A DNA stretch of 64,000 nucleotides from an uncultured virus (IMG/VR IMGVR_UViG_3300043101_000273) (IMGVR_UViG_3300043101_000273); one strand, 5' to 3'; positions 34,696 to 61,210 are shown, counted from the stretch's first letter. The notes: generated by a model not told the origin, from the sequence alone. Made by a program: numbers and translations.

Positions 34696-34697
34696 GT

Positions 34698-37949: not shown

Positions 37950-37967
37950 TAGAAAGGAATATATAAT

Positions 37968-38501: not shown

Positions 38502-38594
38502 AAATATATATTAAAAAATACAAAAGATAATATTCTTATAGTAAAGAAATTTTTTAGAGTTACAAATGGAAATTTCATGAAGGAGTTTTAAGTA

Positions 38595-41046: not shown

Positions 41047-41049
41047 TTT

Positions 41050-43869: not shown

Positions 43870-44016
43870 ATATACACCTCAGTCTTTATGTATTAAGCAA
43901 AAAATATTTTGCTTGTTATTATATAAATAAAAAATTGCGGTTTATAAAAAATAGAAAAATTGTTAGAATATAAAAAAATACTTGACAAAAAAGAAAAGAT
44001 ATAGTATAATATACTT

Positions 44017-44245
44017 AGTAAGAAAATAGTAAGAAAAATATAATATATTTAATAAGCATCTTTTATCTTAGGTAAAAACTAAGATATATTCAAGATGACT
44101 TCGGGCGATTTGCCGTCCGAAAGGTGAGGGTAGTTCGTTTCACATATCGCTCAATACTTGCGATAGAACTTTAAGACTTGCACCGCTTTGACGAAAGAAG
44201 CCAACCACTCGCCAGATTCAATATATAGTATGTAATACTTTTTAT
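44017..44245 (+). ncRNA. Unidentified structured ncRNA, copy 1
   Basis: Promoter 43982-44010; covarying helices versus copy 2; 37-nt identical core 44096-44132. Confidence 0.75.
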
Positions 44246-45180: not shown

Positions 45181-45522
45181 ATGGAATTTTCATTTTTTGG
45201 AGAAACAATTAAAAACGAATTGGATTCTGATAACGAATTCTATTGTAAGTATAAAAATATTATTATAACAGCAAAAAAAGAAGAATATAGTTATAGTTGT
45301 TATATAAAAATTAAGAATACAGACTTCGAAATCTTTTCATACGAAGATACAATACAAGAAGCCATTCAAGACACAATTGAAGAACTGGAAATAGAAATTC
45401 AAAATCTTATATATGATTTTAAAAAGACAATGAATATTTTATCTAATATTCCAAACTTAGAAGAAAAAGAAAACTTCTATTGTACTAGTTGTGGTTGTAA
45501 AATGCTATATAAATTACAATAA
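45181..45522 (+). CDS. Hypothetical protein, paralog of 45541, C-terminal CxxC
   Basis: Promoter and RBS; shared Y.C.I.IK.T...AIQ.T..ELE. Confidence 0.85.
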   Translation: MEFSFFGETIKNELDSDNEFYCKYKNIIITAKKEEYSYSCYIKIKNTDFEIFSYEDTIQEAIQDTIEELEIEIQNLIYDFKKTMNILSNIPNLEEKENFYCTSCGCKMLYKLQ

Positions 45523-45540
45523 AGAAGGAGATGTTTAATA

Positions 45541-45864
45541 ATGAGATTCGTTTTTTTTAAAAAGAATATTGATGTAAGAAATGATTTAAAGAAAAAACAC
45601 GAATTTTATTCCGAATATGATAATTTTATTGTCGAAGGAGAGTATGATGAACTCAAAGAAGTATACTATTGTAGTATTTCTATTAAAGACACTAATCTTT
45701 ATGTTTCTGAATGTGCTAAAACAATGAAAGATGCTATTCAAAACACTTTTAATGAATTAGAAGAACAACTTTGTTTTATAGCGGAAAAAACAAAAAGGAA
45801 TATAAAAATGTTATCTAACACTAGTGATTTGCCAACAAAGCTTAAACCATTAGAAAATGTATAA
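45541..45864 (+). CDS. Hypothetical protein, paralog of 45181
   Basis: AAGGAG RBS; paralogy. Confidence 0.85.
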   Translation: MRFVFFKKNIDVRNDLKKKHEFYSEYDNFIVEGEYDELKEVYYCSISIKDTNLYVSECAKTMKDAIQNTFNELEEQLCFIAEKTKRNIKMLSNTSDLPTKLKPLENV

Positions 45865-45987
45865 CATTATATTTTAAATATAGTGCCGAGAACTCCCCGA
45901 ACCTTTAGGTTCGTGGGATGAATCGGCATATAAAAACTCAGATTGTGTTGTAATAAGCTCAGATATTTCTATTATTCATAGGAGGTA

Positions 45988-46398
45988 ATGCTTATGGGTA
46001 ATTGGAAATCTGCAAGTCATAACAAATACTTATTACAATATCATCTTATATTTGTATGTAAATACAGAAAAAAATTGCTGATAAGTCAGTATGTTTCTGA
46101 TGATATAAAAAGATTATCAAGGGAGATATGCTATAAGCATAATGTTTCTATAAAGTATATGGAAGTAGACAAAGACCATATTCATTATATGATAGAGACC
46201 AAACCAAACATAAACCTATCAGATTTTGTTAGGACTATGAAAAGTTATACAACTTATCATATATGACAAAAATATTCGCCATATCTAAGTAATTATTTTT
46301 GGAAAGAACATACTTTTTGGACAGATGGATATTTTATATGTTCGGTAGGTAATGTTAGTGAAAAGACTCTCAAAGAGTATATAGAAAATCAAGGTTAG
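45988..46398 (+). pseudogene. tnpA: Y1 HUH transposase with in-frame TGA at 46264-46266
   Basis: YHLIFVCKYR and DHIH motifs; frame continues past TGA with FWTDGYF and the catalytic YIENQ to TAG 46398. Confidence 0.9.
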
Positions 46399-46409
46399 GA
46401 GGTGTAGTT

Positions 46410-47510
46410 ATGAATAAAGCAATCAAATATAGAATATATCCAACAGAAGAACAGAAAATCTTATTTGCTAAGACATTTGGTTGTTGTCGCAAGATATGGA
46501 ACTTAATGCTTGCCGATAAAATAGCTTACTATCAGGCAAACAAGCAAATGTTACAGACTACACCTGCTCAGTACAAGAAAGAATATACATACTTAAAGGA
46601 AGTAGATTCTTTGGCACTTGCAAATGTTCAAATGCACTTACAGACAGCCTACAAAAACTTCTTTACTAACCAAAAAACAGGTTTTCCAAAGTACAAGTCA
46701 GCCAAACACAGTAAGAAAACTTACACTACTAACAACAACAAGCAGAAAGGTACGATTGCATTGTATGATAAAGGCATAAAGTTACCTAAACTTGGTATAG
46801 TAAAGGCTAAGATACACAGAAAACCCGATATAGACTGGGTACTTAAATCTGCTACCATTTCACAAGGCAGTGACGGTAAGTATTATGTATCTGTTCTTTT
46901 TGAGTATAATATTGTGATTGCAAAATCAACAGATAATAAATGTATCGGCTTAGATTACAAATCAGATGGTCTTTATGCAGACAGTGAAGGTAATATTTGT
47001 GGCAGTCCTAAATATTACAGAAAATCACAAGATAAGCTTGCTAAAGCACAGAGAAAACTTAGACACAAAACCATAGGTAGCAATAATTATAAGAAACAGC
47101 AGAAAAACATAGCAAGGATATATACACATATATCAAGCCAAAGAAAAGACTTTCTACACAAAAAATCCACCGAGATAGCCAATCAGTATGACATAGTTTG
47201 TGTGGAAACCCTTGATATGAAGGCTATGGCTAATAAAGGATTTGGTAATGGTAAAGCCACATTAGATAATGGTAATGGTATGTTTCTTACTATGTTGGAT
47301 TATAAACTTACAGATAGAGGTAAACAGCTTGTAAAGGTAGATAAGTGGTATGCCTCTACCCAGATATGTTCAGGTTGTGGTAACAGACACCCTATGAAAT
47401 TATCAGATAGGATATATCATTGTGAGTGCTGCGGTCTTACAATAGATAGAGATTACAATTCAGCAATAAACATAAAAAACGAAGGACTTAGGCTTATAAG
47501 TATAGCCTAA
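46410..47510 (+). CDS. tnpB: RNA-guided endonuclease TnpB
   Basis: AIKYRIYPT N-terminus; RuvC GLD / VETL / DRDYNSAIN; CxxC..CxxC Zn finger; putative omega RNA ~47500-47649. Confidence 0.95.
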   Translation: MNKAIKYRIYPTEEQKILFAKTFGCCRKIWNLMLADKIAYYQANKQMLQTTPAQYKKEYTYLKEVDSLALANVQMHLQTAYKNFFTNQKTGFPKYKSAKHSKKTYTTNNNKQKGTIALYDKGIKLPKLGIVKAKIHRKPDIDWVLKSATISQGSDGKYYVSVLFEYNIVIAKSTDNKCIGLDYKSDGLYADSEGNICGSPKYYRKSQDKLAKAQRKLRHKTIGSNNYKKQQKNIARIYTHISSQRKDFLHKKSTEIANQYDIVCVETLDMKAMANKGFGNGKATLDNGNGMFLTMLDYKLTDRGKQLVKVDKWYASTQICSGCGNRHPMKLSDRIYHCECCGLTIDRDYNSAINIKNEGLRLISIA

Positions 47511-47696
47511 GATACATAAACAGTAGGTTAGGAACTAGCCAAACTTATACGCTTGTGGACTTAATGGGAAAACTGCCCTTATGGGTGTGATAATAACCGT
47601 TGAGGTTGAAACAAGAAGCTCCGAGGTTTTAGCCTCGTGAGCAGTTCACCATAATATAACGTTTTTATATATAAAAATTTATAAGGAGAAATTATT

Positions 47697-48164
47697 ATGT
47701 ATACTATTATTCATCCAGTAATAAAATTTTCAAATAAAGTAAATACTCTTATAGAAATATTAAATATTTCTCAACGAGAACTTAATTCTTTATTATTAAA
47801 ATATAATTCTTTTTTATTGGATGAAATCTTTTTTAATAAAGAATGTAATAGAGATATTAAAAAGGAATTTTTTATTTTAAGAAAGAAAGGTTTTCATATA
47901 AACACAATTAATTTAAAAGATACTTTTTACTTGACTTTTACAGCTTCTGATAAAAAAGTTTATACATTATCACAATTAGTGTTATGCGACTTAATAAGTG
48001 TGGATTTGTATAAGTCAATTATTGCATCTATTCATAAGAATTTTTCAGATAAATATAAAGTTACTGAAACAATTATTTGCTTTGAAAAATACGAACAAGT
48101 TAATGATTTTGTACGATACTTAAATAAAACATATAATACTAAATTTTATATAACGAATGCTTAA
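47697..48164 (+). CDS. Hypothetical protein, distantly family B-like
   Basis: AAGGAG RBS; weak similarity to 37455 and 37968. Confidence 0.75.
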   Translation: MYTIIHPVIKFSNKVNTLIEILNISQRELNSLLLKYNSFLLDEIFFNKECNRDIKKEFFILRKKGFHINTINLKDTFYLTFTASDKKVYTLSQLVLCDLISVDLYKSIIASIHKNFSDKYKVTETIICFEKYEQVNDFVRYLNKTYNTKFYITNA

Positions 48165-48242: not shown

Positions 48243-50438
48243 ATGAATATAATGAATGAAGTTTTATTGCGTAGAAAAAATTCTTTTATTATTACAGAAA
48301 AAGAATTTGCTTATGATTCTTTTGTTGCTGCTAAGAATAAAGAAGATTTGCTTGATTTCTTAAATGAAGATAGTAAATTAAAAGACCTCAATCACAAAAA
48401 GTTTAATAGTCTTGAAGAATTTTACATTGCTTTCGTACCTGACTATCTTGGTAAAAAAGATATTATTAATGATTGTAATGGATATTTTAAAAAATTAGGT
48501 TATACATTAGGTTCTTCTTTTGATGATTTAGTTTTTTATAAATTAGACCATATCAGAGATACTCTTATGGAAGTTTATGATATTCTTAAATCTTTAAAAG
48601 GAGCTGATGTTAATTATTCTACATTAAACGATATATCAACTGATACTGAATCAGAAGATAGTTCAGAAGATAGTGTAGAATTAGTTAAATTAGAAAAGGC
48701 TACTTTTAATGATTATGCAAAAATTATCAAAAACCTTCTTAGTTCAAAGACTTCTTTATCTAATAAAGACTTAGAAGATATAAAGAATTCTATTTCTGTT
48801 AATAGTAATATTATTCTTTCTATTAAAGAAATTCCATTTAAAGAGAATCTTATTGCTGTTACTAAACTCCTTATGGAAAATGATTTATCTTTATACACTA
48901 CTAAGTGGTTTAATAATACAACCGACGTATTAAGACTTATTGTTGGTTTATCTGACGGTGATATTTCTTTAGTTACTCCGTGTCGTTTTAAGAACCTTAA
49001 AAATAGAGAAAAGAAATTTATCGTATCTTTATTAAACACTGTTATTAAAAATAATAACAATGCTTACGAAGATATGTATAAAAAGAAAAATCTTTGGATA
49101 ACCGCAGCATATAAATTAAATGTAGGTACTTTTAAACAGTATGATTATGCTCTTAAAGCTATTTCTATGCTTAGAAACGGTGAACATATTGATACATTTA
49201 TGGGTAAAGTTAATAATCTTATTAATACTAACCAAATTATTCCTGCTGTTGATTTGCTTAAAACAAGACCAGGAGAATTTGCAAGAAGATTAAATGAATT
49301 TATCAATAAACCTGACCTTACTGAAAAAGACCTTCATTATATCATGAACACTTATAAGAATATTGTAGATAAATTAAGTTCTACTGTTCTTATTTCTATT
49401 ATTACTTTCTTTAAGAATTATAATAAGGAAGAATTAAGAGTGTTTAATGTAAAAGCTAATTCAAGTAAATCCTATGCAGTCTTAAATACTTGTAATGATT
49501 TAAAGAGTAAGTTTATTGATTATATTATTCAAGTAAGCAATAATGCTCTTGTTAATCTTTATATGAAGAAAGATTATATGGGTTATATTTATTTAGGATT
49601 AGATTTTAAAGACTTTGCTATTCCTAACACATTAAGAACCAGTAATTCTACAAGTAGAATTGTTACAAGAGGTAGTAGAGAATCTTTTGATTATGATAAG
49701 TTAAGAACTTTTATTCATTGGACTAATACCGAAAAAGGTGCAAGAATAGATATTGATTTATCATGTGGTTTCTTTACTGAAAACTTAACTTGTGTTGAAT
49801 ATGTAGATTTTACTCATTTGGAATGTAATGGTGTAAAGCATTCAGGTGACATTACCGATGGTGGAGATTTTAATGGTAATGGAGCAGCTGAATTTATTGA
49901 TGTAGATATAGATGTTCTTAAAGAACATAATATAAAATATATCATACCACAAGTTTATGTATTTTCAAGTATACCTTTTAGTAAGTTGAACTGCACTTTT
50001 GGTTATACTAATGAATTTACAAAAAATATAAATCCTAAAAATGTATTCAATAAAATGGCTATAACAGCAAATGAAACAAATATTATACCATTTATTATGG
50101 ATATTGAAACTAAAGAAATTATCTATGTGGATGCTCCTATTACTCATTGTGATAATATGAAAAATAAAACTCAAATGGTTGAAACTCATTTAAATGATTT
50201 ACAGGCTATTTTATACAACTTTATTCATACAAAGAGAATGAGTATGTATGATTTAATTAAATACAATATTCAAGCAAGAGGTATTGAAACGGATGATATA
50301 TATAATGCTGATGTTGTCTTTACAAATAAGCAAATAGATTTTTCTGAACTTAACAAAGAAAGAGAAGAAAATAATAAACCTTTAATTAGAGTTATTTCTG
50401 CTTATGATATTGACGAAATTGTAGGAGATTTATTATAA
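48243..50438 (+). CDS. Large protein with C-terminal TerD-like domain
   Basis: TTDVLR, RPGEFARRL, RGSR, IDIDLS, HSGDITDG...GAAEFIDVD motifs. Confidence 0.75.
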   Translation: MNIMNEVLLRRKNSFIITEKEFAYDSFVAAKNKEDLLDFLNEDSKLKDLNHKKFNSLEEFYIAFVPDYLGKKDIINDCNGYFKKLGYTLGSSFDDLVFYKLDHIRDTLMEVYDILKSLKGADVNYSTLNDISTDTESEDSSEDSVELVKLEKATFNDYAKIIKNLLSSKTSLSNKDLEDIKNSISVNSNIILSIKEIPFKENLIAVTKLLMENDLSLYTTKWFNNTTDVLRLIVGLSDGDISLVTPCRFKNLKNREKKFIVSLLNTVIKNNNNAYEDMYKKKNLWITAAYKLNVGTFKQYDYALKAISMLRNGEHIDTFMGKVNNLINTNQIIPAVDLLKTRPGEFARRLNEFINKPDLTEKDLHYIMNTYKNIVDKLSSTVLISIITFFKNYNKEELRVFNVKANSSKSYAVLNTCNDLKSKFIDYIIQVSNNALVNLYMKKDYMGYIYLGLDFKDFAIPNTLRTSNSTSRIVTRGSRESFDYDKLRTFIHWTNTEKGARIDIDLSCGFFTENLTCVEYVDFTHLECNGVKHSGDITDGGDFNGNGAAEFIDVDIDVLKEHNIKYIIPQVYVFSSIPFSKLNCTFGYTNEFTKNINPKNVFNKMAITANETNIIPFIMDIETKEIIYVDAPITHCDNMKNKTQMVETHLNDLQAILYNFIHTKRMSMYDLIKYNIQARGIETDDIYNADVVFTNKQIDFSELNKEREENNKPLIRVISAYDIDEIVGDLL

Positions 50439-50552
50439 TAAGTATATAAAAAAGATGGCTACTTTTTAGTCATCTTTTTTTGTTAAAAATTCTTGACAAA
50501 ACATAAAAAAAGTAGTATAATATAACCAAATTAAAAATAGGAGGTAAATCAA

Positions 50553-51050
50553 ATGACAGTAGGAGAAAGAATCAAAATAAAACGTAAAGAACTAGGTATT
50601 ACACAAGGTAATTTAGCTCAAAAACTTGGGTATAAATCTCGCTCATCAATCAATAAAATTGAGTTAGGTCAACAACAAGTAAGTCAGCATACACTTATTT
50701 TAATTGCTCAAATCTTACAAACAACACCAGATTACTTACTTGGTTACACACAAGACAAAGACGTTACACACGCAGATTTTATAAGAAAGTTGAACAGTTA
50801 TGAAATAAATCGTATAGTAAATGTATTCAACAATGCAACCGAAGCGGATAAGGATAAGTTTTTTGATTTATTAAAAAATTTAATGGAGCAATCAAACGAT
50901 GATAAAGATGCTTTTTTTGAAATATCAAAGAGAGTATTAAGAGCAACTTGTGAGGATAAAAAAATTATCTTAGATATAGTAAAAATACCATTTTTTACTA
51001 ACAGAGAGAAAAAATTACAAAAAGAGGAAGAAGAACAACAACAGACATAA
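50553..51050 (+). CDS. XRE/Cro-CI family HTH transcriptional regulator
   Basis: GERIKIKRKELGITQ..LA..LGYKSRSSINKIELG...YLLG. Confidence 0.92.
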   Translation: MTVGERIKIKRKELGITQGNLAQKLGYKSRSSINKIELGQQQVSQHTLILIAQILQTTPDYLLGYTQDKDVTHADFIRKLNSYEINRIVNVFNNATEADKDKFFDLLKNLMEQSNDDKDAFFEISKRVLRATCEDKKIILDIVKIPFFTNREKKLQKEEEEQQQT

Positions 51051-51184
51051 TAAAAACTAACAAAAAGGGATATTCCTACAACAATATTGGTTCTACAAGA
51101 TTAGAGGATAGCGTATCAACCTCTAATGAAGTTAATTTAGTACCACAAGTTGAAATAACAGAAGCTACTGGTGACATAGAAGAT

Positions 51185-51466
51185 TTGGAAGTTAGTGACA
51201 CTGATTTGAAATATGACGATAGAAGTCCTATTGTAACAGGTAGAATTACAAATACTACAAGTGAGGAAAAAGATTGTTATATTGAAGTAGTTTTCTATAA
51301 TTCAGAGGGTAAAGCAATTGCTGTTACCGAATCAAGTGTTGATAATATTCCTGTAAATGGTAAAAAGAGTTTTGAAAACTCAGGATATTTCATAGAGAAT
51401 AATATAAAATCTACTGATATTACTGATTATAAAGTTTTCGCTAGAATAACTAATTATTTTTATTAA
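51185..51466 (+). CDS. FxLYD-like beta-sandwich fragment (frame open from 51002, no clear start)
   Basis: VTGRITN...VVFYNSEGKAIA...IP..KKSFE. Confidence 0.6.
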   Translation: MEVSDTDLKYDDRSPIVTGRITNTTSEEKDCYIEVVFYNSEGKAIAVTESSVDNIPVNGKKSFENSGYFIENNIKSTDITDYKVFARITNYFY

Positions 51467-51519
51467 TATAAACGAGGGAGATATAATTCTCCCTCTCTTT
51501 TTTAGAAAGGAGAATATAT

Positions 51520-51922
51520 ATGAAAAAATTTGATATAGAAGATAAATTTCTTTATTATTTAGGAATATTTTCAATTGTAATGACAATTATTTATTTTATC
51601 TAAGTATTTCATCATAGAAACAAACTGCTTCTTGAAAAAAATTGTTAATATATATTGTCCTTTATGTGGAGGTACAAGAGCTACTATATTATTATTTCAA
51701 GGAGAGTTTTTAAAAAGCATCTATTATAACCCTATTGTAATTTATACAATATTATTAGGAAGTGTTTTTATGATTAAAAATACTATTGCCATATTGTTTG
51801 ATAAGATTAACGTTTTTAAAATCAACAATAACTATTTATATTTATTTATAGCAATACTAACTCTTAATTTTTTTATTAAGAATTATTTTGTAGTCTTTAA
51901 AAATATTTTCTTAATTGGATAA
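51520..51922 (+). pseudogene. DUF2752-like membrane protein, frameshifted near 51590
   Basis: RBS plus ATG 51520 stops at ~51603; CPLCGGTRA motif continues in another frame. Confidence 0.7.
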
Positions 51923-52149
51923 AAAATGTTTTTTAGTAATATAAAACCAATTATTATTTTTATATAATAAGTGAAGCTGTGTTTTGCAGTTTCCATAGTT
52001 TGCTGCAATGTTCTATTGCAGTTCCTCCTTAAAGTAGTGTGTAATTGTGGTATTTTAAAAGTTACAAAGAAAAGAGTGCTGTCCGATGGCACTCTTTTTT
52101 TGTTTTAAAAATACTTGATAAAAAAGAAAAAATATAGTATAATATACTT

Positions 52150-52375
52150 AATAAGAAAAATATAAAAATGATTTTAACAAGCACCCTTGTTTTTAGAATA
52201 TTCTAAAAATATGTTTCTGGTGACTTCGGGCGATTTGCCGTCCGAAAGGTGAGGGTAATTCATTTCACATACCATTCAACACTTGTGGTAGAATTTTAAG
52301 ACTACACCAAAAAATGACGAGTAGTAGCCCACCACTCACCAAATTCAATATATAGTATATAATACTTTTTTATTT
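52150..52375 (+). ncRNA. Unidentified structured ncRNA, copy 2
   Basis: Promoter 52115-52143; identical core 52221-52257; covariation versus copy 1. Confidence 0.75.
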
Positions 52376-52595
52376 TTTTAGTTTTTTTAAATTCTGTCGA
52401 TGTATTGTAATGTAAAAATGCTAAGAGATTGACAGAAAATTAAAAACGCTTTATTTGCCTATGTTTTTGTGAAAATATAGTAAATAATAAATAAGAAATA
52501 ATAATTGGAGGTAACTTTTCAATGAGTTCGACAAGATTAGTGTTTCAAATACTAACAAAATACACTATTGTATATTGAACGGGTATTAATACTAA

Positions 52596-52928
52596 TATAG
52601 TGGAAAAGCAAAACAAGTTGATATAATACCAGCGAATAAACAAATAACTGAATTTACTGTTACAGATACAGAATTAAAATATAAGAATAAAGTTCCTGTT
52701 GTTACAGGCAAAATAAATAATACTAATAATACAGAACAAAATGTTTGTTTAAAAGTCATATTCTATGATTTTGATAATGAAGCTATTGCTATTAGCGATA
52801 CAAATATTATTATTCCTGCAAATTGTAAAAAGACTTTTGAAATAAAAGGATATTATATAAAGGATAAAGTTGAAGAAGGAATTATAACTAATTATAAAAT
52901 ATCCGCTCAAACTAAATATTTACAATAA
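52596..52928 (+). pseudogene. Start-less FxLYD-like paralog of 51185
   Basis: Hand translation TDTELKY..PVVTGKINN..VIFYDFDNEAIA..IPANCKKTFE; in-frame stop upstream, no ATG. Confidence 0.7.
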
Positions 52929-53003
52929 TTATTGTATAAATAAAGAAAATCAAGCATATAATATAAATATCTTATTAAATCTTTTTGTTAAGGAGAAAAT
53001 TAT

Positions 53004-53426
53004 ATGTTTAGTATGAATGAAATTGAAACCATTACAAATGATTTTAAAAATTATTTAATAAACAATTATATTGAAAAAGAAAATGTAGAAATTATAGAAG
53101 AAAAAACTTCATTAGCAGAACTTATTGATACTTTAAAAACAGATAAAAATGTTAGTTTAGAATGGTGGAGCGAATATAAAAGAAAAATTAAATCTGGTGA
53201 TATTGTTTATATACCTAATATTAAAAAGTTTGGTATATTCATTTGTCCAGCAGTAAAAAAAGATAAGGTAAGAATTAGATTACTTAAAAATGAAGATAAA
53301 AATAGTGCATATACAACTGATTGGTTCTTTGATTATAATGAAATAAAGATAGTTAAGCATAATAATAAATTAACAAGAAGTTTTACTGAAACAGAAGATA
53401 ATTTTATTTATAAATATGCTCAATAA
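53004..53426 (+). CDS. Hypothetical protein, possible SH3/KOW-like C-terminus
   Basis: AAGGAG RBS; IKSGDIVYI motif. Confidence 0.75.
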   Translation: MFSMNEIETITNDFKNYLINNYIEKENVEIIEEKTSLAELIDTLKTDKNVSLEWWSEYKRKIKSGDIVYIPNIKKFGIFICPAVKKDKVRIRLLKNEDKNSAYTTDWFFDYNEIKIVKHNNKLTRSFTETEDNFIYKYAQ

Positions 53427-53475
53427 TTTTAAAAAAGATATTGACAAAGTTTAAAAAATATGGTATAATATATTT

Positions 53476-53675
53476 GTTCTTAAAAGAGAACGGTAGGAGA
53501 ATTTCAACTCCTCCCTTAAATATTGTCGTTAATGGAAAGGTATCTTTCCTTGGCAATAAAGCTTGTTTTGGAAGAAGTTACAGTGCTTCTTGCTTTTATA
53601 ACATTATGTTTATATTTAGTAAGCAGAGAAAAACTTTGTGTACAAACAAGGTATATATATTGTAAAGTTGCATTT
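53476..53675 (+). ncRNA. tracrRNA-like scaffold RNA, copy 1
   Basis: Promoter TTGACA 53441 / TATAAT 53464; loop AATTTCAA 53500-53507 complementary to repeat 3' end; anti-repeat 53651-53673 complementary to repeat 5' part. Confidence 0.8.
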
Positions 53676-53684
53676 AGAATACAA

Positions 53685-53869
53685 GTGCGAATCTTAAAAA
53701 GCAATATTATTTTTATATAATTAAAAAATTAGATTCGCACCTGAAATTTTGCACAAAATTCAATATTTTTTAATGGTAAATGATTTTTATAAAAAGTTAT
53801 TTACTTGCTAGTTGTTTATTATAACAAAGCAAAATTTAAAAATCGAATATTTTTTTGTGCAATATCGCA
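53685..53869 (+). promoter_or_regulatory. CRISPR leader 1 with two inverted repeats
   Basis: GTGCGAATCT 53685 / AGATTCGCAC 53731; TTGCACAAAA / TTTTGTGCAA; homologous to leader 2. Confidence 0.75.
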
Positions 53870-54087
53870 GTTGCAACTTATACACATATATGTATTGAAA
53901 TTGTAATGGTTCTGAACAAAATGAATCAGCAGCTATGTTGCAACTTATACACATATATATATTGAAATTATAAAAAAATTCTCTTCACCGTGTGTGGAAT
54001 TGTTGCAATTCATATATGTATATATGTTGGAATTATCTAAAAAATAAATGTTATGCAGGGAATGTTCCAACTCATATATATTGGAAT
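53870..54087 (+). CRISPR. CRISPR array 1: 4 repeats (GTTGCAACTTATACACATATATGTATTGAAAT, degenerating distally), 3 spacers of 35, 33, 30 nt
   Basis: Repeats at 53870, 53937, 54002 and 54064 (truncated). Confidence 0.88.
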
Positions 54088-54197
54088 TTAATATTGAAAA
54101 CACACTTGATAAAATTAAAATAAAATTTTTATTATTTCGTTTAATATTTCTCTTTATTTATATATATAATATATGAAAATAAAAAGGGAGGTAAAAA

Positions 54198-54416
54198 ATG
54201 ATGACAATAACTTTTAGTAATATTCAAACAGTCAAAGATTTTGTAAATACAACTAATAAATGCACAGGTGATATTGAAGTAAAATCAGATAGATATGTAG
54301 TAGACGGTAAGTCTATTATGGGACTGTTTTCTTTAGACTTTTCTTTACCAGTAGAGGTTATTACTCATAATCCAGATGATTTAAATACAATCAAAGATTT
54401 TATAAACACATTGTAA
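54198..54416 (+). CDS. HPr-family phosphocarrier-like protein (Ser46 motif kept, no His15)
   Basis: VDGKSIMGLFSL motif; GGAGG RBS; 72 aa. Confidence 0.85.
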   Translation: MMTITFSNIQTVKDFVNTTNKCTGDIEVKSDRYVVDGKSIMGLFSLDFSLPVEVITHNPDDLNTIKDFINTL

Positions 54417-54624
54417 TTTATTTAATTGATTATCCATTTTTGCCATTTTGTGATAATCCTCCTTGCAAATAATAGATTACAATTCAAAAAAGAGCTTAGT
54501 TTCGCCACTAAGTTCTTTTTTTATTGAAAAATTGCAGAAAATGTTGACAAATGATAAAAAATGTAGTATAATATGATTACAAAAAACACAAAATTATTTT
54601 AAATTATCAAAGGAGAAAATAAAA

Positions 54625-56301
54625 ATGGCTAAATCAGAAAAGAAATGCTTTGTAGTACAAATACCTTTGAACCTTGAAAAATTCCAAATTGATTTTTTAA
54701 ATAAGAAATTGGAAGATTGTAGAAAGGTATATAATACGGTTCTTAGTATAACATTAAAAAGATATAAAGAAATGCAAAAGACTAAGAAATATAAGTATAT
54801 AGAAAAAACTACTGAAAAATATTGGAAACCTATCAATGATTATAAAAATCAAATAGATGAGTTGAACAATGAAGTAGCTGATATAAACGAACTTTTAAAA
54901 AATAATAATTTGTCTAACGAAGAAATTATTGATTTAAATAATAAGAAGAAAGATATTGCAGCTCAGATAAAAACACTTATAGCAGAAAAGAAAAAATTAA
55001 ATGATGAATTTAAATTAATTAAACCTGAATTCAATAACATAAAAAACGGATTATTAAAAGAATATCATATTTCTAAATATGGGTTCGATAAAGATATTCG
55101 AAAAGTATATTCTCATTTTAACATACCATCTAAAACAGCTGAAAGTATTAGAGACGATATTTGGAGAGCTTATGATAAAAACTTATGGGGTAATGGAAAA
55201 AGATTTCATTTCAAGCGTTATAATACTGTTGATTCTATAAATGGCAGTTCTAATAATCAAACTGTTAAGTTAGACCTTGAAAAGAATTGTGTAACCTACA
55301 TGAAAAAAGATTATCCTATTAAGTTTCCTAAAAATAACAACTACATTATAGAAGCTTTAAATAATAACAAAATAATTAGATGTAGAATTGTTCGTAAGTC
55401 CATAAAGAAAAAAGATAGATTTTTTGTACAGGCAACATTAAATGGTACTCCACCTACTAATTACAATCGTCTTATGGGCAACGGTAAAGTTGGTATTGAT
55501 ATTGGTACTCAGACTATTGCTGTCGTTGGAAAAAACGATATAAAGTTGGAAGAACTTGCCAAAGGAGTACAAGATATTCAAAATCAACTTAGAATAATTA
55601 ACAGAAAAATGGATAGAAGTAGAAGAGCTACTAATCCTGATAATTATAATGAAGATGGTACTATTGTTAAAGTAAAAAAAGGTGAAAAGCGTAATTGGCA
55701 TTATTCTAAAAACTATAAAAAATTAGCAGCAGAAAGAAAAGAACTTTTCAGGAAGCAAGTTGATTTAAGAAAACTTTCTCACGAAACACTTGCAAATGAA
55801 ATTATTGGAATGGGTGATGAGTTCTATATAGAAGATATGGAGTTTCAAGCATTACAGAAAAAAGCAAAAGAAACCACTAAAAACTCAAAAGGCAAGTTTA
55901 ATAGCAAAAAAAGGTTTGGCAAGTCTATTGCTAATAAAGCTCCTGCAATGGCTAAGTCTATTTTGAAAAGAAAACTTGGATATTACGGTAAAGAGCTTAT
56001 TGAAATAAAAACTAAAAAAGCTAAAGCAAGTCAATATAATCATGTGGATAATACTTATATTAAGGCTGAATTAAGCGTAAGAAGCAAAGATATTGGTGGT
56101 CATAAAATACAGCGTGATTTATATAGTGCTTTTCTTATTAGTAACATCAATCCTGACTTGGAAACATTTAATAGAGTTGGTTGTAATATTAAGTTTGATA
56201 ACTTTTGTAAAATGCATGATAAAAAAATAATCGAGCTTAAAAATGATGATTCAATTCATAATTTATCAAGTTTAGGTTTGAAAGATTTTTCTGAAAAATA
56301 A
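54625..56301 (+). CDS. CRISPR-associated TnpB-derived RuvC nuclease (compact Cas12-like effector), 558 aa
   Basis: RuvC-I GIDIG (D292), RuvC-II IEDM (E403), RuvC-III QRDLYSA (D498); TnpB-like N-terminus CRKVYN; no CxxC; own promoter 54544-54572. Confidence 0.88.
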   Translation: MAKSEKKCFVVQIPLNLEKFQIDFLNKKLEDCRKVYNTVLSITLKRYKEMQKTKKYKYIEKTTEKYWKPINDYKNQIDELNNEVADINELLKNNNLSNEEIIDLNNKKKDIAAQIKTLIAEKKKLNDEFKLIKPEFNNIKNGLLKEYHISKYGFDKDIRKVYSHFNIPSKTAESIRDDIWRAYDKNLWGNGKRFHFKRYNTVDSINGSSNNQTVKLDLEKNCVTYMKKDYPIKFPKNNNYIIEALNNNKIIRCRIVRKSIKKKDRFFVQATLNGTPPTNYNRLMGNGKVGIDIGTQTIAVVGKNDIKLEELAKGVQDIQNQLRIINRKMDRSRRATNPDNYNEDGTIVKVKKGEKRNWHYSKNYKKLAAERKELFRKQVDLRKLSHETLANEIIGMGDEFYIEDMEFQALQKKAKETTKNSKGKFNSKKRFGKSIANKAPAMAKSILKRKLGYYGKELIEIKTKKAKASQYNHVDNTYIKAELSVRSKDIGGHKIQRDLYSAFLISNINPDLETFNRVGCNIKFDNFCKMHDKKIIELKNDDSIHNLSSLGLKDFSEK

Positions 56302-56346
56302 TTAAAAACCATTGACAAAGTTTAAAAAATATGGTATAATATAATT

Positions 56347-56546
56347 GTTCTTAAAAAAAGAATAGTAGGAGAATTTCAACTCCTTCTTTAAATGTTACCG
56401 CTAATGGATGGGTTACTGTCCTTGGTAATAAAGCTTGTTTGGAAAAAGTTTTAGTGCTATTTGCTTTTGTAACATTATGTTTATATTTAGTAGGTAGAGA
56501 AGAATTTTGTGTACAAACAAGGCATATATATAGTAAAGTTGTAATT
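56347..56546 (+). ncRNA. tracrRNA-like scaffold RNA, copy 2
   Basis: Promoter 56312-56340; loop AATTTCAA 56372-56379; anti-repeat 56522-56545; compensatory changes versus copy 1. Confidence 0.82.
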
Positions 56547-56556
56547 AAAAATATAA

Positions 56557-56741
56557 GTGCGAATCCCTAAAATCTAATACCGATTTTAGGCGTTTGAAAA
56601 TGGGGTTCGCACCTATAAAATTGTACAAAAGTTAATATTCATTTAACAACAAATAACTTTTGTAATTTGTTATTTATATATTATTTGTTTAATGCGAGTA
56701 AATAATAATTCGAAAATTGAATATTTTTGTGCAATTTTGCT
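56557..56741 (+). promoter_or_regulatory. CRISPR leader 2
   Basis: GTGCGAATCCC 56557 / GGGGTTCGCAC 56602; TTGTACAAAA / TTTTGTGCAA. Confidence 0.75.
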
Positions 56742-57100
56742 GTTGCAACTTATACATATGTATGTATTGGAATGTGTTTGGTAAAACAACATCAGTAGTA
56801 TTTGATGTTGCAACTTATACATATGTATGTATTGGAATTGATGCTGTAACTCACAAGGGTTGGATTGCTAGGTTGCAACTTATACATATGTATGTATTGG
56901 AATTAAGAAAAATGAGCCTTATGTTGTGGCAACAGCGTTGCAACTTATACATATGTATGTATTGGAATTGTATTGCTATTATTTGATTTCACTTGCATTT
57001 CAGTTGCAACTTATACATATATATGTATTGGAATTGTAACGGAAGTTAATGATTTATTCACAGAAGATGTTGCAACTTACATATGTATATGTATTGGAAT
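56742..57100 (+). CRISPR. CRISPR array 2: 6 repeats of 32 nt (GTTGCAACTTATACATATGTATGTATTGGAAT), 5 spacers of 33, 33, 33, 34, 34 nt
   Basis: Repeats at 56742, 56807, 56872, 56937 identical; 57003 and 57069 carry variants. Confidence 0.97.
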
Positions 57101-57334
57101 TTACCAACTAATCAACTTGGCGGTACAGGTAAGATTTTTAATTGGGAATTTGCAGCTACTTTTGCAAAAACTCACAATACCGTACTTGCAGGTGGTATAA
57201 ATAGTAAAAACATAATAAAAGCATACAAAACCGTACTTCCACAAGTGATTGATTTAAGTTCATCAGTTGAGAAAAACGGTTTTAAAAGTTATAACAAAAT
57301 AAAAGAATTAATACAAACAATTAGAAAGGAATGA
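57101..57334 (+). pseudogene. trpF: C-terminal fragment of phosphoribosylanthranilate isomerase
   Basis: GGTGKIFNW, LAGGINSKNI, IDLSSSVE.NGFKS..KI match TrpF motifs; N-terminal half absent. Confidence 0.85.
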
Positions 57335-57340
57335 TATTAA

Positions 57341-57664
57341 ATGGCTGAATTTGAAGATATTAATATAGATTTATCTAAACGTACTCCTGCCGAATGGTCG
57401 GATATCTACCATTTAAAACTTTATAATTCTCCACCACGTCAGCTTTGGACTGAATTTGAGTGGGCTTATAATCTTCCTAATTTGGATTATCAATATATCC
57501 TCATAAATGATTCTTCCGAAGAAGCAGAGGAAATGGAACTTAGAGCTTTTGATATTAAAAATCTTATTTTCCATCTTGCTGATAAAAGCGAAAAGGAAAT
57601 TCTTAAAACAAAATACATTGAAACTGAATGGATAAGGAAAAAACTTATTATAAACGATTTTTAA
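57341..57664 (+). CDS. Hypothetical protein
   Basis: AAAGGA RBS; closely follows the trpF fragment. Confidence 0.8.
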   Translation: MAEFEDINIDLSKRTPAEWSDIYHLKLYNSPPRQLWTEFEWAYNLPNLDYQYILINDSSEEAEEMELRAFDIKNLIFHLADKSEKEILKTKYIETEWIRKKLIINDF

Positions 57665-57680
57665 GATTGGAGATACCATA

Positions 57681-58262
57681 ATGAATAAAATATTGCACAC
57701 TAAAAATCCTATAAATGATACTATTGATGAAATTTTATTAAAAGAGTATTTAGATAAAGCTATATCAGCAACTTCTGAAAAGATAAGAAATTTACTTTAT
57801 GAGTATTCTTCTTCTCATAAAAATGAAGTTTACATAATAATAGATATCCTTTCTGATATAATCTCAAATAAGGATTATACTAAAGAAGCTCGTTCTTTAA
57901 ATAAAATAAAGAATATTATTAATATTGGTATTTTAGGAATGATAGATGATGAGTTTGTTAATGACTTATATAAATTAAAAAATATTAACCCTGATGGAAA
58001 TAAAATAAATTTGTTAGATTTTTGTACTCAACAAAATTTACTTATTCATTGTGCAAACTTTTCTCATCTTATAAAACAATTTGTTTATATATCACTTATT
58101 TCAAAAGACCCAAATACTATAAATAATATTATAACAAATGAAGAAATAACTATTCCTGACCAAGATGCTATGAATATTATTTGTTGTTTTTCACTTCTTT
58201 TTATTGAGAGTCTAAAAACTGATATCGTTTATATTTCTTATTTTTCTAATTTAGAAAAATGA
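57681..58262 (+). CDS. Hypothetical protein, paralog of 61214
   Basis: Shared TS.KI..LL, IISNK, NIICCF. Confidence 0.85.
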   Translation: MNKILHTKNPINDTIDEILLKEYLDKAISATSEKIRNLLYEYSSSHKNEVYIIIDILSDIISNKDYTKEARSLNKIKNIINIGILGMIDDEFVNDLYKLKNINPDGNKINLLDFCTQQNLLIHCANFSHLIKQFVYISLISKDPNTINNIITNEEITIPDQDAMNIICCFSLLFIESLKTDIVYISYFSNLEK

Positions 58263-58390
58263 ACCTTTTAGTCACGATTGTTTTATCGTGACTTTTTGTC
58301 GAAAAAACTCCATTATTTCTTGACAAATCATAAAAAATATGGTATAATATAAACATAAAAATAATATTTTTCCAAAAGGAGGTCTTTATT

Positions 58391-59536
58391 TTGCAAAGCA
58401 TTGATTTTATAAAAACTGATAGTCTTATATATAAGGAATATTTAAAAATAATAAAAGACACTTTTTCTACTTATGTTGTTTGTGATAAAGAAAAAGATGC
58501 AGTTAAAACTATGTGTGAATATATAGAAGATTTAATCAAAAAATCACCAATAAAGTATAAAAATAATTATTTTAAATCTTTTATTAATGAATATTTTAAA
58601 ACTATTAATATTGATAGTATGCAAGAATTTTATAATAATCATCAGGAGTTCTCTTTTTTTGAGTATAATACTTCTTATCATTATGGATATATTCTCCTTG
58701 CTTCTTGTTTGAATATTTCAATTTCTTCACATTTGATAAATCATCCAGAAGAAAATTATGTTTTAACAGAAGAAAGAACTTTAAACATTATTCTTAATTA
58801 TATTGATACTTATTTGACAGTACTTAATAGTAGCTTTATTTCTTCAAAACACGCTATGGATTCTATATCTAATAGAAATTTTCATGAATTTGAAGGTCTT
58901 GTTGTTTTAAAAGATGATTTAAATAAACTACAAGATAAGTATGATAAATTAAAAGCTTCTATTGATATTAAGGTTTCTGATGAAATAAAAAAACAGTCTA
59001 ATAGCATAGAACAAGAAAAAACTACTATGTTATCTGAACAGAAACATCTTAAAGAAAAAATTAAAGCTTTAGAAGAAAAGAATAATGAACTTCAAAAAAA
59101 TCTTAATAAGCAAATAAAAATAAACACTCATAATGAAAATTTGCTTAATAAAATGAAGTCCAATAATACTTCTTCTAAAAATATTACTACTAATATTCCT
59201 GAAAGCAATTCTACAATCTCAGAAGAACCACAAGATAGAAGTATTAATATTAATAGAAAAATACTTTTTGTAGGAGCTTCTCCTAGTATGCTTAGTAAAT
59301 TACAAAATATATATTCTAATGCACAAAATACTGATTTCAATTCTGCTAAGATAAATAAGAATTTTGTTAGTAAATTCGATTGTATTGTTTTCTTAAATGC
59401 AAAGCCTACTACAAATCCTTATAATGCTTATGCAAAGATTAAAACCATTGCTGATAAATGTAAAATTAAATATATCAATTGTAAAAATAATAATATAGAC
59501 TTAATTGTAGATAATATTGAAAATACTTTTACTTGA
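58391..59536 (+). CDS. Coiled-coil protein with C-terminal DUF2325-like domain
   Basis: ILFVG...IVFL...KIK..ADK.KIKYI.C; paralog of 59555. Confidence 0.75.
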   Translation: MQSIDFIKTDSLIYKEYLKIIKDTFSTYVVCDKEKDAVKTMCEYIEDLIKKSPIKYKNNYFKSFINEYFKTINIDSMQEFYNNHQEFSFFEYNTSYHYGYILLASCLNISISSHLINHPEENYVLTEERTLNIILNYIDTYLTVLNSSFISSKHAMDSISNRNFHEFEGLVVLKDDLNKLQDKYDKLKASIDIKVSDEIKKQSNSIEQEKTTMLSEQKHLKEKIKALEEKNNELQKNLNKQIKINTHNENLLNKMKSNNTSSKNITTNIPESNSTISEEPQDRSININRKILFVGASPSMLSKLQNIYSNAQNTDFNSAKINKNFVSKFDCIVFLNAKPTTNPYNAYAKIKTIADKCKIKYINCKNNNIDLIVDNIENTFT

Positions 59537-59554
59537 TAATTGGAGGTACACACT

Positions 59555-61210
59555 ATGAATGGAATACATATTGATAGTAAAGCAAGGCAACTTGCAGATT
59601 TTATGGAAATAACTGATAAAACACTTACTAATAATGTTGGTATTAGTACTAAAAAAGGTTTTTCTTCTGCAATTCTTGATATCGTAGAAAAAACAATAAA
59701 AAAAGAATCTATTGCTTTTAAAAATGAACAATTTGAAAAATTTATTGATGTCTTTTGCATTAAGAATAGTCAGGTAAGTATAAATAAAATAACAGACTTA
59801 TATACTAATCATCCCGAAAAAATCAATCAAAAGGAAATTCTTAATTATATAGATGAAAGATATCAATATAATATGTTCTTCTGCTTCTGTACTAAAGAAT
59901 TTTCTAAGAAAGGGAATATTACAGAAATAACTCCTAATGAAGCATTACAAGTTATTTTCCTTTGTATTGTTGATACTTTTAAGTTCTTATCTCAAAAAGC
60001 AGACAGTATTACCCTTAATAATACAGAATCTCAGGTTTGTTTTAAAACTACCGAAGAAGTAGGTAAATATACAACAGATTTGTTAAGGAAATTACTTAAT
60101 AATTGTATTAATACTTCAACTCGTAATATAGGAGATATTGTCTTAGAACTTATTGAAGCAGCTGTAAATAAAAAAGAATTAAATATTAAAGATTCTTATT
60201 TTGAAAGTTATGTTCAAGAAATTCTAACAGAAGAATTTATTTATCTTATTCGTAAACAGTATTGTACATTTCAAGGCACTTTTGAATTTTCAAGTAAGGA
60301 AGTAGAAGTTTTTGCTAATATCCTTAATGATATCGTAAGAATGTTTTATGCGTCTGAAACAGTTATGACTCCTGATGGAGAACCTTACCTTACGGATGAA
60401 CAAGGAATGTCTATAATCTTTATGTTTATATATACTATCGTGAATGTTATGACTCATCACGCTAAATATGACGAACTTAAAAAAGAAAAAAAGATAGATG
60501 ATAAAGTTTATAAGGATGATGTAGATAGTTGTTATAAACTCGTTGATAAATTGAAGAATAAAAATACTTCTCTTGAAAATGATTTAATAACAATTAAAGG
60601 CAAGTATGAAAAATTAAAAAACTCTTTAGATGCAAGAATAGAAAAGAAAGTAGAAAAGCAGTCTAAACTCTTAGAACAAGAAAAAAGTTCTATTGTTTCT
60701 GAAAATAACAGATTGAAAGCTAAATTGGAACAGTTACAAGAAGAAAATACAAAACTTCAAAATACTCTTAACAAACACGAGAAACAAGCCATTAATAATG
60801 AAAAGATTGATACTCTTAATAAGAGAATAAAAACTCTTACGGAACAAAATGCTCAGTTAAGACAGGCAATTGCAAATCCTACTACGGAAGATTTTGATGA
60901 GTTTGAAGATATGCCTGATGATAGAGCTATAAACATCAATAGAAATCTTTTGTTTATTGGCGGTCATACTACTACTCTGGATAAGTTGCAGAATATTTAT
61001 TCAAAAGCTGATTATGTTTCTAATGAAACGACTGAAATAAATCAGAATTATATGAATAACTTTGAAGGTATTGTTTTCTTAACTGATTTCTTATCTCATA
61101 ACCTTTATAAGAAGATTAAGAAGTTAGCAGATAAATATAAAATTAAATATATACATTGTAAAAATAACAATGTTGATTTGATTGTGGATGATATAGAAAA
61201 TAATTTTTAA
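59555..61210 (+). CDS. Coiled-coil protein with C-terminal DUF2325-like domain (start revised)
   Basis: LFIGGH...IVFLTDFLSHNLY motif; GGAGG before ATG 59555. Confidence 0.8.
   Translation: MNGIHIDSKARQLADFMEITDKTLTNNVGISTKKGFSSAILDIVEKTIKKESIAFKNEQFEKFIDVFCIKNSQVSINKITDLYTNHPEKINQKEILNYIDERYQYNMFFCFCTKEFSKKGNITEITPNEALQVIFLCIVDTFKFLSQKADSITLNNTESQVCFKTTEEVGKYTTDLLRKLLNNCINTSTRNIGDIVLELIEAAVNKKELNIKDSYFESYVQEILTEEFIYLIRKQYCTFQGTFEFSSKEVEVFANILNDIVRMFYASETVMTPDGEPYLTDEQGMSIIFMFIYTIVNVMTHHAKYDELKKEKKIDDKVYKDDVDSCYKLVDKLKNKNTSLENDLITIKGKYEKLKNSLDARIEKKVEKQSKLLEQEKSSIVSENNRLKAKLEQLQEENTKLQNTLNKHEKQAINNEKIDTLNKRIKTLTEQNAQLRQAIANPTTEDFDEFEDMPDDRAININRNLLFIGGHTTTLDKLQNIYSKADYVSNETTEINQNYMNNFEGIVFLTDFLSHNLYKKIKKLADKYKIKYIHCKNNNVDLIVDDIENNF

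Follow-up and report, generated by a model that had tools for sequence, protein, structure and literature searches.

TranC systems and the guide-splitting principle were reportedly published by Jin et al. in Cell in 2025 (doi 10.1016/j.cell.2025.09.004). By definition, TranC can use both a CRISPR RNA (crRNA) and an unsplit right-end RNA (reRNA). The parts of three reports that bear on such systems (bioRxiv 10.1101/2025.09.28.678669, bioRxiv 10.64898/2026.03.27.714800, PMC13565253) describe a TnpB-like effector of 300-600 aa with a short array, no adaptation genes, and an omega RNA or reRNA that is functionally split into a trans-activating crRNA (tracrRNA) and a crRNA. The same sources give clade 11 of TranC 3-17 repeats, each 32-36 bp long, and place some TranC members on phages (CauTranC9). 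In its relevant passages, Nakagawa et al. (Nature 2023, PMC10097598) describe the omega RNA of ISDra2 TnpB as a natural single-guide RNA (sgRNA), with crRNA-like and tracrRNA-like parts linked by a UUUA tetraloop and a pseudoknot beside the guide, and propose that tracrRNA-crRNA pairs stem from the splitting of such an omega RNA. These passages also describe how the tracrRNA of Cas12f contacts the repeat twice, in a main repeat:anti-repeat duplex and in a short pseudoknot duplex; an excerpt of PMC12255294 gives ~200 nt for the Cas12f guide RNA. Here, we analyze a locus on a 64,000-nucleotide stretch of DNA from an uncultured virus (IMG/VR IMGVR_UViG_3300043101_000273), which we call the window. 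The locus holds two paralogous non-coding RNAs (tracr1 and tracr2), two CRISPR arrays, and a 558-aa nuclease related to TnpB (Table 1). We think it very probable that both RNAs serve as tracrRNAs in a compact CRISPR system of type V (TranC-like), carried by a giant phage, and that they derive from a split omega RNA.

Each tracr can pair with its repeat at two points. Near the 5' end of both RNAs is the hairpin P1, AGGAG-AATTTCAA-CTCCT (53495-53512 and 56367-56384), whose loop is the reverse complement of TTGAAATT, the 3' end of repeats 1 and 2 of array 1. In RNA letters, the 8-nt loop AAUUUCAA complements UUGAAAUU. The repeats of array 2 end with TTGGAATT (UUGGAAUU as RNA) and the first one with TTGGAATG (UUGGAAUG as RNA), and their internal G gives one G-U pair against the P1 loop. 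The 8-mer shared by the loop and the repeat end occurs 13 times in the window, counting both strands, versus 22.7 expected, so the chance of an exact match for a given 8-mer loop is about 2e-4 in the window's composition. The second contact is at the other end of the RNA: when each whole tracr is tested against its repeat with RNAduplex, the best duplex lies exactly in the 3' tail (-21.2 kcal/mol for tracr1 and -24.0 kcal/mol for tracr2). With the array 1 repeat, tracr2 reaches -19.5 kcal/mol, so its own repeat is favored by 4.5 kcal/mol, and tracr1 binds the two repeats equally. A cofold of module 2 also pairs the P1 loop region with the end of the repeat. Both contacts, including the G-U wobble, had been proposed by an earlier reading made from the sequence alone (the sequence-only reading), and both hold up, as did all of its other statements about the sequence when we checked them.

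That reading had also described the two RNAs as ~200-nt paralogs with identical promoters and compensatory changes. They are two non-coding copies of ~205 nt, with promoters that are identical across ~33 nt; the modules, including the promoter and the downstream hairpin, have a mean column identity of 88%. In their common fold, both have P0, P1, P2 with an inner P2b, a long-range P3 that encloses P4, and a free 3' tail. tracr1 folds better than its shuffled versions (z = -3.24; 0 of 200 shuffles equal it). tracr1 and tracr2 differ in 33 of 206 alignment columns. Of these differences, 17 are unpaired, including two single-base indels, which disfavor a coding frame. The other 16 sit in 13 predicted pairs, and the compensatory changes are real: all 13 stay standard pairs in both copies (three are changed on both sides, G-C to A-U twice and A-U to U-G once, and ten on one side), with the caveat that the count leans toward the predicted structure because that structure was derived from tracr1 and tracr2 themselves. 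P2, P2b, P3, and the pseudoknot have independent support from 43 omega RNAs.

To obtain these omega RNAs, we took the 3' flanks of 64 relatives of the nuclease, trimmed 59 of them to a conserved ...TCAG, and aligned the 43 distinct sequences (160-216 nt). Where an element has several copies, within one genome or in sister genomes, these diverge exactly at ...TCAG in five of seven groups, one base later (+1) in one group, and at +13 in another. Because the copies stop matching there, TCAG marks the right end, and the DNA that flanks the element supplies the guide; and since the omega RNAs end at ...TCAG, the pseudoknot strand abuts the guide as the repeat end abuts the spacer. RNAalifold gives 31 pairs for the 43 sequences, 23 of them with compensatory changes. 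In the pseudoknot, the first hairpin's loop (UUGAAAC or a variant of it) pairs with the six bases that precede the guide (GUUUCA or a variant). With the pseudoknot included, 95.2% of cells are paired, versus 74.2% for shuffled alignments (0/500), and 25 of 37 pairs vary on both sides. The pseudoknot helix itself is 97.3% paired and has two covarying pairs, one with A-U in 29 sequences, C-G in 11, U-A in 2, and U-G in 1, and another with A-U in 30, U-A in 5, C-G in 4, and others.

Comparison with the omega RNAs of non-CRISPR relatives was a check that the sequence-only reading had suggested. A covariance model (CM) built solely from the 43 omega RNAs finds both tracrs, and these omega RNAs carry the same pseudoknot, with covariation. 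With filters off, tracr2 scores 28.8 bits (E = 1.2e-4) and tracr1 scores 26.3 bits (E = 4.3e-4), where the E-values are rough, as the calibration was short. These are the only matches under E = 0.7 on either strand of the 64 kb; the next match has 12 bits. By eye and with MAFFT, the correspondence between the omega RNAs and the tracrs runs through the whole scaffold. Across alignment columns 28-101, 30-42 of 65-66 positions are identical between tracr1 or tracr2 and 13 omega RNAs. Shared marks are CGTTAAT after the 5' strand of P2, AAAG before P3, GGAA...AGTG inside P3, and GAGAA before the 3' strand of P3. P3 itself reads GUCUUAGG/CCUAAGAC in the omega RNAs; the tracrs have GCUUGUUU/AAACAAGG, where both bases differ in five of the seven pairs. 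When P2/P2b is aligned jointly for tracr1, tracr2, the tracr of a CRISPR-linked relative (locus L065), and the 13 omega RNAs, 96.9% of cells are paired, versus 77.5% when shuffled (0/500) and at most 56% in slid controls.

The point of the split can be placed. In the omega RNAs, an 8-bp hairpin with a TTTA loop comes directly after the 3' strand of P3, and it is followed by the pseudoknot strand and then by the guide. In the tracrs, the anti-repeat immediately follows the 3' strand of P3, and in each repeat, ~25 nt that pair with the anti-repeat precede the 8-nt pseudoknot strand, which borders the spacer. The duplex of the anti-repeat with the 5' part of the repeat thus sits where the TTTA hairpin stood, which puts the cut in the TTTA loop. 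The 3' arm of the hairpin, the pseudoknot strand, and the guide are missing from the tracr, and are found in the repeats and spacers ~190 nt downstream. The pseudoknot has changed at two pairs relative to the omega RNAs (G-C to U-A and A-U to C-G). Also, tracr2 lies directly 3' of the nuclease gene, which is the position of the omega RNA behind tnpB. Joining the tracr to the repeat with a tetraloop, as an sgRNA, would be predicted to restore the ancestral topology. The proposal that this is a split omega RNA, which the sequence-only reading had made, is supported by the kinship of the nuclease, the omega-only CM, the shared stems, the pseudoknot, and the position of the TTTA hairpin.

We propose the following mechanism, which would tie together the observed anatomy, pairing, omega-RNA homology, covariation, and presence in RNA libraries. 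Each tracr would represent four-fifths of an IS200/IS605 omega RNA, counted from the 5' end. In the ancestor, this RNA was a single molecule and would have been split in the loop of its last hairpin: the 5' arm of this hairpin would have grown into the anti-repeat of the tracr, so that the duplex is now intermolecular (~22-25 bp); the 3' arm, with the pseudoknot strand, would have become the CRISPR repeat; and the guide would have become the spacer. Each consensus promoter would drive a tracr, and transcription may continue into the array. In every repeat, the 5' portion of ~25 nt would pair with the anti-repeat, and the final 8 nt, which directly precede the spacer, with the P1 loop; this second contact would rebuild the omega pseudoknot. 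As for processing, nuclease binding, cleavage, and the protospacer-adjacent motif (PAM), we infer that the two-piece scaffold is bound by the 558-aa nuclease, which then cleaves DNA that has both a match to the 32-34-nt spacer and an adjoining 5' motif.

The nuclease is related to the TnpB proteins of IS200/IS605 elements. Among the 120 matches listed from a search of 5.8 billion proteins, there is one close homolog (P0002, 64% identity), and the next relatives are many proteins of ~486 aa with 41-47% identity over 73-99% of the query. Apart from P0002, the nearest relatives are IS200/IS605 TnpBs (~43% identity), and in all three of the annotated records that we examined (a Clostridium plasmid, Geobacillus virus E3, and phage phiCD211), an IS200-type tnpA adjoins the relative. 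Among family models, Pfam gives only a sub-threshold HTH_OrfB_IS605, the NCBIfam guided_TnpB model matches at E = 6.8e-17, which is under that model's cut-off, PHROGs gives "transposase" (9.6e-36), and PADLOC gives weak matches to Cas12u4 and Cas12f (36-41 bits) in the RuvC part only, with Cas12f at 35.9 bits over residues 278-336. No match to PF07282 or PF01385 was found with Pfam, and the sequence has no CxxC pairs; this TnpB clade as a whole is without the usual zinc finger. The nuclease differs from the clade mainly by an insertion of ~60 aa; in the AlphaFold model (pLDDT, the predicted local distance difference test, 84.1; pTM, the predicted template modeling score, 0.53), this insertion forms a long hairpin of helices within the N-terminal lobe. 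D292, E403, and D498 are invariant in 43 aligned sequences, and are expected to form the RuvC triad, judging by motif position and the fold match, rather than by a residue-level superposition. In a Foldseek search, the model matches Cas12m2, ISFba1 TnpB, Cas12f, Cas12p, ISDra2 TnpB, and LaTranC, with 9-15% identity and E-values from 2e-10 to 3e-6 (LaTranC has rank 23 and 13% identity). By sequence, phmmer and profile searches of the PDB found nothing under E = 0.1, LaTranC included.

We looked for further loci of this kind. Searches of viral contigs for loci of the nuclease or of P0002 found nothing, and exact-pattern scans of viral contigs for the P1 hairpin and the repeat gave 0 hits. A blastn search of plasmids and phages with tracr2 found no match. 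A metagenome scan for loci of the nuclease returned just a 35% relative without an array, and for P0085, its nearest neighbor in the tree, no locus was found. Short arrays occur at three of the 80 genome loci, L062, L065, and L086 (34-37% identity); the arrays contain 3, 4, and 10 repeats, and the scaffold there is contiguous with the first repeat. The omega CM matches the L065 scaffold over its full length (37.1 bits, E = 8.8e-7). In L062 and L086, the loop of the first hairpin is GGGCA and the repeats end with UUGCCAG, which is a two-point contact in another sequence. In a quick tree, P0001 and P0002 lie beside P0085, and L062, L065, and L086 are in a separate clade. Taken as it is, this tree would need two changes for the origin of the link to arrays; its starred branches would allow one.

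Both tracrs are represented in RNA libraries. Six gut metatranscriptome runs contain 5-16% of the locus's sampled words, and we mapped contigs from four runs of four studies. tracr1 is covered by contigs at 53491-53680, 53496-53675, and 53499-53743, and the first leader with repeat 1 by a contig at 53752-53902. tracr2 is covered at 56368-56523, 56368-56526, 56399-56521, and 56393-56770, and the second leader and the first repeat-spacer-repeat unit at 56497-56770, 56521-56717, 56741-56835, and 56744-56838. The contigs are limited to the two tracrs, both leaders, and the first repeat-spacer units, with a depth of up to 154 on tracr2; across three stretches, namely 53000-53440, 54029-56233 (the nuclease gene), and 56969-57400, the depth is 0. 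Such a pattern would not arise from stray DNA. Two runs contain a variant of tracr2, with 12 differing letters and one gap (10 substitutions and one inserted base in a second tabulation). Four of its substitutions fall in predicted pairs, which are kept or improved (G-U to A-U three times, U-A to U-G once), and one would break a weak 2-bp helix.

The contig at 56393-56770 runs unbroken from tracr2 through the hairpin and the leader into repeat 1, so co-transcription is possible. This bears on an alternative explanation, in which the tracr part is a cis-acting scaffold or processing platform within one long transcript (tracr, hairpin, leader, and array) and no free trans-acting RNA exists. Neither tracr is followed by a canonical terminator; the sole terminator-like site in 53350-57200 is the P1 hairpin, on the minus strand. 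The promoter-like sites before the arrays are weak (10/12), and the scaffold is contiguous with the first repeat in L065, L062, and L086. Against this, one scaffold cannot serve 3-6 repeats in cis, the contigs at 53491-53680 and 53496-53675 end before the hairpin, which suggests a short separate form, and contigs are no proof of single molecules. We consider this explanation improbable.

Table 1. Features of the CRISPR locus, in window coordinates.
Feature	Coordinates	Strand	Evidence and remarks
Open reading frame (ORF), function unassigned	53004-53426	+	
tracr1 promoter, TTGACA-17-TATAAT, TG-extended -10	53441-53469	+	12/12 consensus match; identical to tracr2 promoter
tracr1 (P0, P1 with pseudoknot loop, P2/P2b, P3, P4, anti-repeat)	53476-53680	+	Predicted fold; CM match 53470-53583; RNA contigs
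P1 hairpin of tracr1	53495-53512	+	Loop AATTTCAA at 53500-53507
Anti-repeat of tracr1	53652-53672	+	RNAduplex -21.2 kcal/mol with repeat nt 2-26
Conserved hairpin behind tracr1, GTGCGAATCT...AGATTCGCAC	53685-53740	+	RNA contig 53499-53743 stops just past it
Leader 1, ~130 nt		+	Between the hairpin and array 1
CRISPR array 1	53870-54087	+	32-nt repeats at 53870, 53937, and 54002; 24-nt degenerate repeat at 54064; 3 spacers
Small ORF, 72 aa	54198-54416	+	Between array 1 and the nuclease; sub-threshold HPr-like match
Nuclease promoter	54544-54572	+	Perfect consensus
Putative TnpB-derived Cas12-like effector, 558 aa, without zinc finger	54625-56301	+	D292, E403, and D498 conserved
tracr2 promoter	56312-56340	+	Perfect consensus
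tracr2	56347-56551	+	Predicted fold; CM match 56352-56454; RNA contigs
P1 hairpin of tracr2	56367-56384	+	Loop at 56372-56379
Anti-repeat of tracr2	56523-56544	+	RNAduplex -24.0 kcal/mol with array 2 repeat
Conserved hairpin behind tracr2, GTGCGAATCCC...GGGGTTCGCAC	56557-56612	+	RNA contig 56393-56770 passes through it
CRISPR array 2	56742-57100	+	Six 32-nt repeats; five 33-34-nt spacers
trpF (PRAI), C-terminal fragment	57101-57334	+	Pfam PRAI 2.3e-17, profile positions 125-192 of 193; NCBIfam

The block from the promoter to the first repeat is duplicated, with a start-to-start spacing of 2871-2874 nt. Both tracrs lie upstream (~190 nt) of their own array, and they flank the nuclease gene. The locus has three perfect 12/12 TTGACA-17-TATAAT promoters, for the two tracrs and for the nuclease gene. 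These promoters with their flanks (TTGACAAAGTTTAAAAAATATGGTATAAT type; 53403-53471, 54528-54603, and 56290-56347) recur, at 77-97% identity, at dozens of sites in G001, a 379-kb record that IMG/VR classes as a provirus. This suggests a class of promoter used across the phage. The small 72-aa ORF weakly resembles the HPr phosphocarrier, below threshold (Pfam 1.5e-4, NCBIfam 2.5e-5), and has no match in PHROG or PADLOC. An Rfam scan of 50000-60000 found nothing relevant.

One end of G001 is 100% identical to 28200-48164 of the window. Neither the omega CM nor a DNA search with tracr1 and its leader found a copy in G001. Beyond the edge of G001, an ORF at 48243-50438 matches phrog_33734 (E = 1e-50), so phage-like gene content looks to continue outside the matching part. 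The window has ~24% G+C, most of its scanned ORFs lack a Pfam family, and the protein cluster of the nuclease occurs on contigs of up to 502,690 bp. Our reading is that the locus lies on a very large phage, or on an element resembling one, whose host is a gut bacterium with low G+C. Genes elsewhere in the window include a PIN-PhoH fusion (42469-43869), a DNA polymerase III beta-clamp-like protein (13752-14912), and a glucosaminidase (18391-18885), which are auxiliary genes typical of phages. A stretch of ~390-500 bp upstream of the locus (52109-52607) has 4-5 copies in G001, with 78-85% identity. The sole IS200/IS605 pair in the window (45988-47510) is of another TnpB family. This element has a 92-aa fragment of a Y1 transposase (Pfam 9e-21) and a canonical TnpB, 366 aa long, in which both OrfB_IS605 and the zinc-finger TNB domain are present; its G+C is 0.31, versus ~0.24 around it. 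In Pfam scans of the frames in 51000-58262, we found no Y1 transposase, so the locus has no tnpA of its own element there.

The spacers were compared with G001 and with 50,697 phage records. Spacer 1 of array 2, the leader-proximal and newest one (56774-56806), matches the phage's own genome at G001:168748-168782 (locus L093) with 32 of 33 positions identical. The protospacer is inside a large ORF that is rich in Ser, Thr, and Asn. Its 5' flank is AATTCTTTT, which does not contain the TTAC motif seen at the left ends of the TnpB relatives, and because there is just one protospacer, we infer no PAM. The self-matching spacer fits with the targeting of sister phages while the phage's own genome is spared; a single case proves nothing. 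Array 1 has only chance-level matches to G001, and the spacers of both arrays have no target among the 50,697 phage records.

Several observations weigh against the view that these are working tracrRNAs split from an omega RNA. Besides its rough E-values, the omega CM misses both tracrs when Infernal's default filters are used; with filters off, it aligns only P1-P2/P2b and skips the variable interior, P3/P4; and it misses the tracr-like regions of L062 and L086. The folding of tracr2 is only modestly better than that of shuffled sequences (z = -1.85; 10 of 200 shuffles equal it). The anti-repeat is AT-rich and of low complexity, and 2 of 1000 mononucleotide-shuffled repeats reach each duplex energy. 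RNA contigs give no strand, ends, or level of the RNA, and the commonest piece of tracr2 (56399-56521, adapter-flanked) spans P2-P3 without P1 or the anti-repeat. This piece may be a protected core, or, because P1 and the anti-repeat are missing, a breakdown product. Pfam scans of 74 frames of the window turned up no cas1, cas2, or cas4. Array 1 is decaying: its 32-nt repeats degenerate progressively along the array, with repeat 3 diverged and repeat 4 a truncated 24-nt remnant. Finally, one of the eight spacers was matched, only to the phage's own genome, with a mismatch at nucleotide 3 of the spacer.

Some of these observations would also be expected if the RNAs were decaying relics of omega RNAs, or old right ends, that happen to be transcribed from strong phage promoters, with a nuclease that uses the crRNA alone or is inactive. 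The degeneration of array 1, the lack of adaptation genes among the scanned frames, and the lack of external spacer targets in the phage records all agree with this. We nevertheless regard it as very unlikely. All 13 changed pairs are kept between the paralogs, the anti-repeats track their own repeats, and the 8-nt loop complement is kept in both copies. The nuclease ORF is intact and its acidic residues are conserved, and a repeat alone would lack the scaffold stems that omega-RNA-dependent relatives require.

Long-form tracrRNA represses its own system in the case of Cas9, and the TnpB-derived TldR proteins are repressors. The idea that the RNAs are regulatory guides, whose partial complementarity steers the nuclease to repress the phage's own or other phage promoters (instead of, or besides, licensing crRNAs), could draw on the three near-identical promoters in the locus, the many alike in the phage genome, and the self-matching spacer with its PAM-proximal mismatch, but the tracr itself has no guide-like 3' extension after a pseudoknot strand and the acidic triad is intact, unlike that of nuclease-dead repressors, so we give this idea the least credence of all.

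Within the split omega RNA reading, a more specific history is conceivable, in which the locus is a living fossil of an in-place conversion from transposon to CRISPR in a giant phage; we consider this doubtful. It would combine the trpF junction, the hairpins behind the tracrs, the two modules becoming partly orthogonal, and the targeting of sister phages. The hairpin behind each tracr has a GTGCGAAyC/GrTTCGCAC stem and a variable loop, and occurs twice in the window, versus 0.01 expected. It has no T-run and is not a canonical terminator, and an RNA contig reads through it. Among 93 loci, it is otherwise found only in L062 (4878-4917, directly after the stop codon of the nuclease) and inside an ORF of L086. 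The left ends of the IS relatives carry (A/T)GTGCG(A/G)AAAGCCCAC, and the hairpin resembles their left-end motif GTGCGAAAAGCCCAC. Because the motif is shared, it is conceivable that the hairpins are remnants of left ends. The C-terminal third of trpF starts exactly where array 2 ends (57101) and abuts the last repeat. The N-terminal half of trpF was not found in the 17 stop-to-stop frames of 51002-54413, nor in G001, so these searches lend no support to an in-place insertion into trpF. If the living-fossil history were true, array 2 would end at the ancestral junction of right end and flank in a disrupted trpF, and its last "spacer" would go back to the guide of the transposon. The GTGCGAA hairpins would then be what remains of left ends, and the tracr-array module, once duplicated, would be on its way to two guide sets that serve one nuclease and are partly orthogonal. 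The system might then be used against sister phages, whose tail-fibre-like gene would differ from the phage's own copy by the seed mismatch.

The concept of guide splitting is already published, and this locus leaves it unchanged. What is unusual here is the duplication of the tracr-array modules, the giant-phage host, and the array that ends against a truncated trpF. In the titles and abstract openings that a literature search returned, no type V locus with two tracrRNAs is described. The locus appears to be a clear natural example of the recently described route from transposon to CRISPR, and one in which the route of the guide can be read base by base, by comparing the unsplit omega RNAs with the split pair, stem for stem. 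The two diverged modules amount to a natural experiment on the co-evolution of tracrRNA and repeat. The nuclease is compact and belongs to a TnpB clade that lacks the zinc finger and for which the PDB chain sequences that we searched offer no solved structure, and nature suggests the design of its guide. The locus also adds a giant phage that would carry such a system, with RNA evidence from gut samples.

How does this system compare with the known ones? The parallels that the sequence-only reading drew with Cas12f and with TnpB omega RNA are right in kind, as far as the cited passages of PMC10097598 go. Cas12f, as described there, also has a long structured tracrRNA with two repeat contacts and a miniature nuclease, whereas the effector in the window has neither the TNB zinc-finger domain nor a family-level match to Cas12f. 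With ISDra2 TnpB, as far as it is described there, the likeness lies in the relatives' omega RNAs, where a TTTA loop marks the place of the split; sequence similarity is absent, and ISDra2 TnpB has 408 aa and a zinc finger.

The omega RNAs of the IS200/IS605 relatives (on Clostridium plasmid pCLK, L009; in Geobacillus virus E3, L010; in phage phiCD211, L011; and at the 80 genome loci) share with the tracrs the order of stems: P1 with the pseudoknot loop, P2/P2b with CGTTAAT, and the long-range P3 with its AGTG...GAGAAG inner part. They also share with tracr2 the position immediately 3' of the nuclease gene, and the relatives' proteins have 41-47% identity to the nuclease across 97% of the length. 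In contrast to the tracrs, each omega RNA is one molecule that contains the 8-bp TTTA hairpin and the pseudoknot strand and takes its guide from flanking DNA, and its pseudoknot is UGAAAC/GUUUCA instead of AAUUUCAA/UUGAAAUU. Those omega RNAs belong to mobile elements with tnpA and a TTAC-type left end, and there is no such tnpA at the window locus.

The closest match in kind is TranC, to the extent that the cited reports describe it: in both cases, a TnpB-related effector lies beside arrays and the guide appears to be a split reRNA, which for the window is suggested by homology of sequence and structure. Unlike the TranC systems in those reports, the window locus has two diverged tracr-array modules, with their own promoters, that flank the effector. 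And the effector itself has no detectable sequence similarity to LaTranC and comes from the zinc-finger-less TnpB clade.

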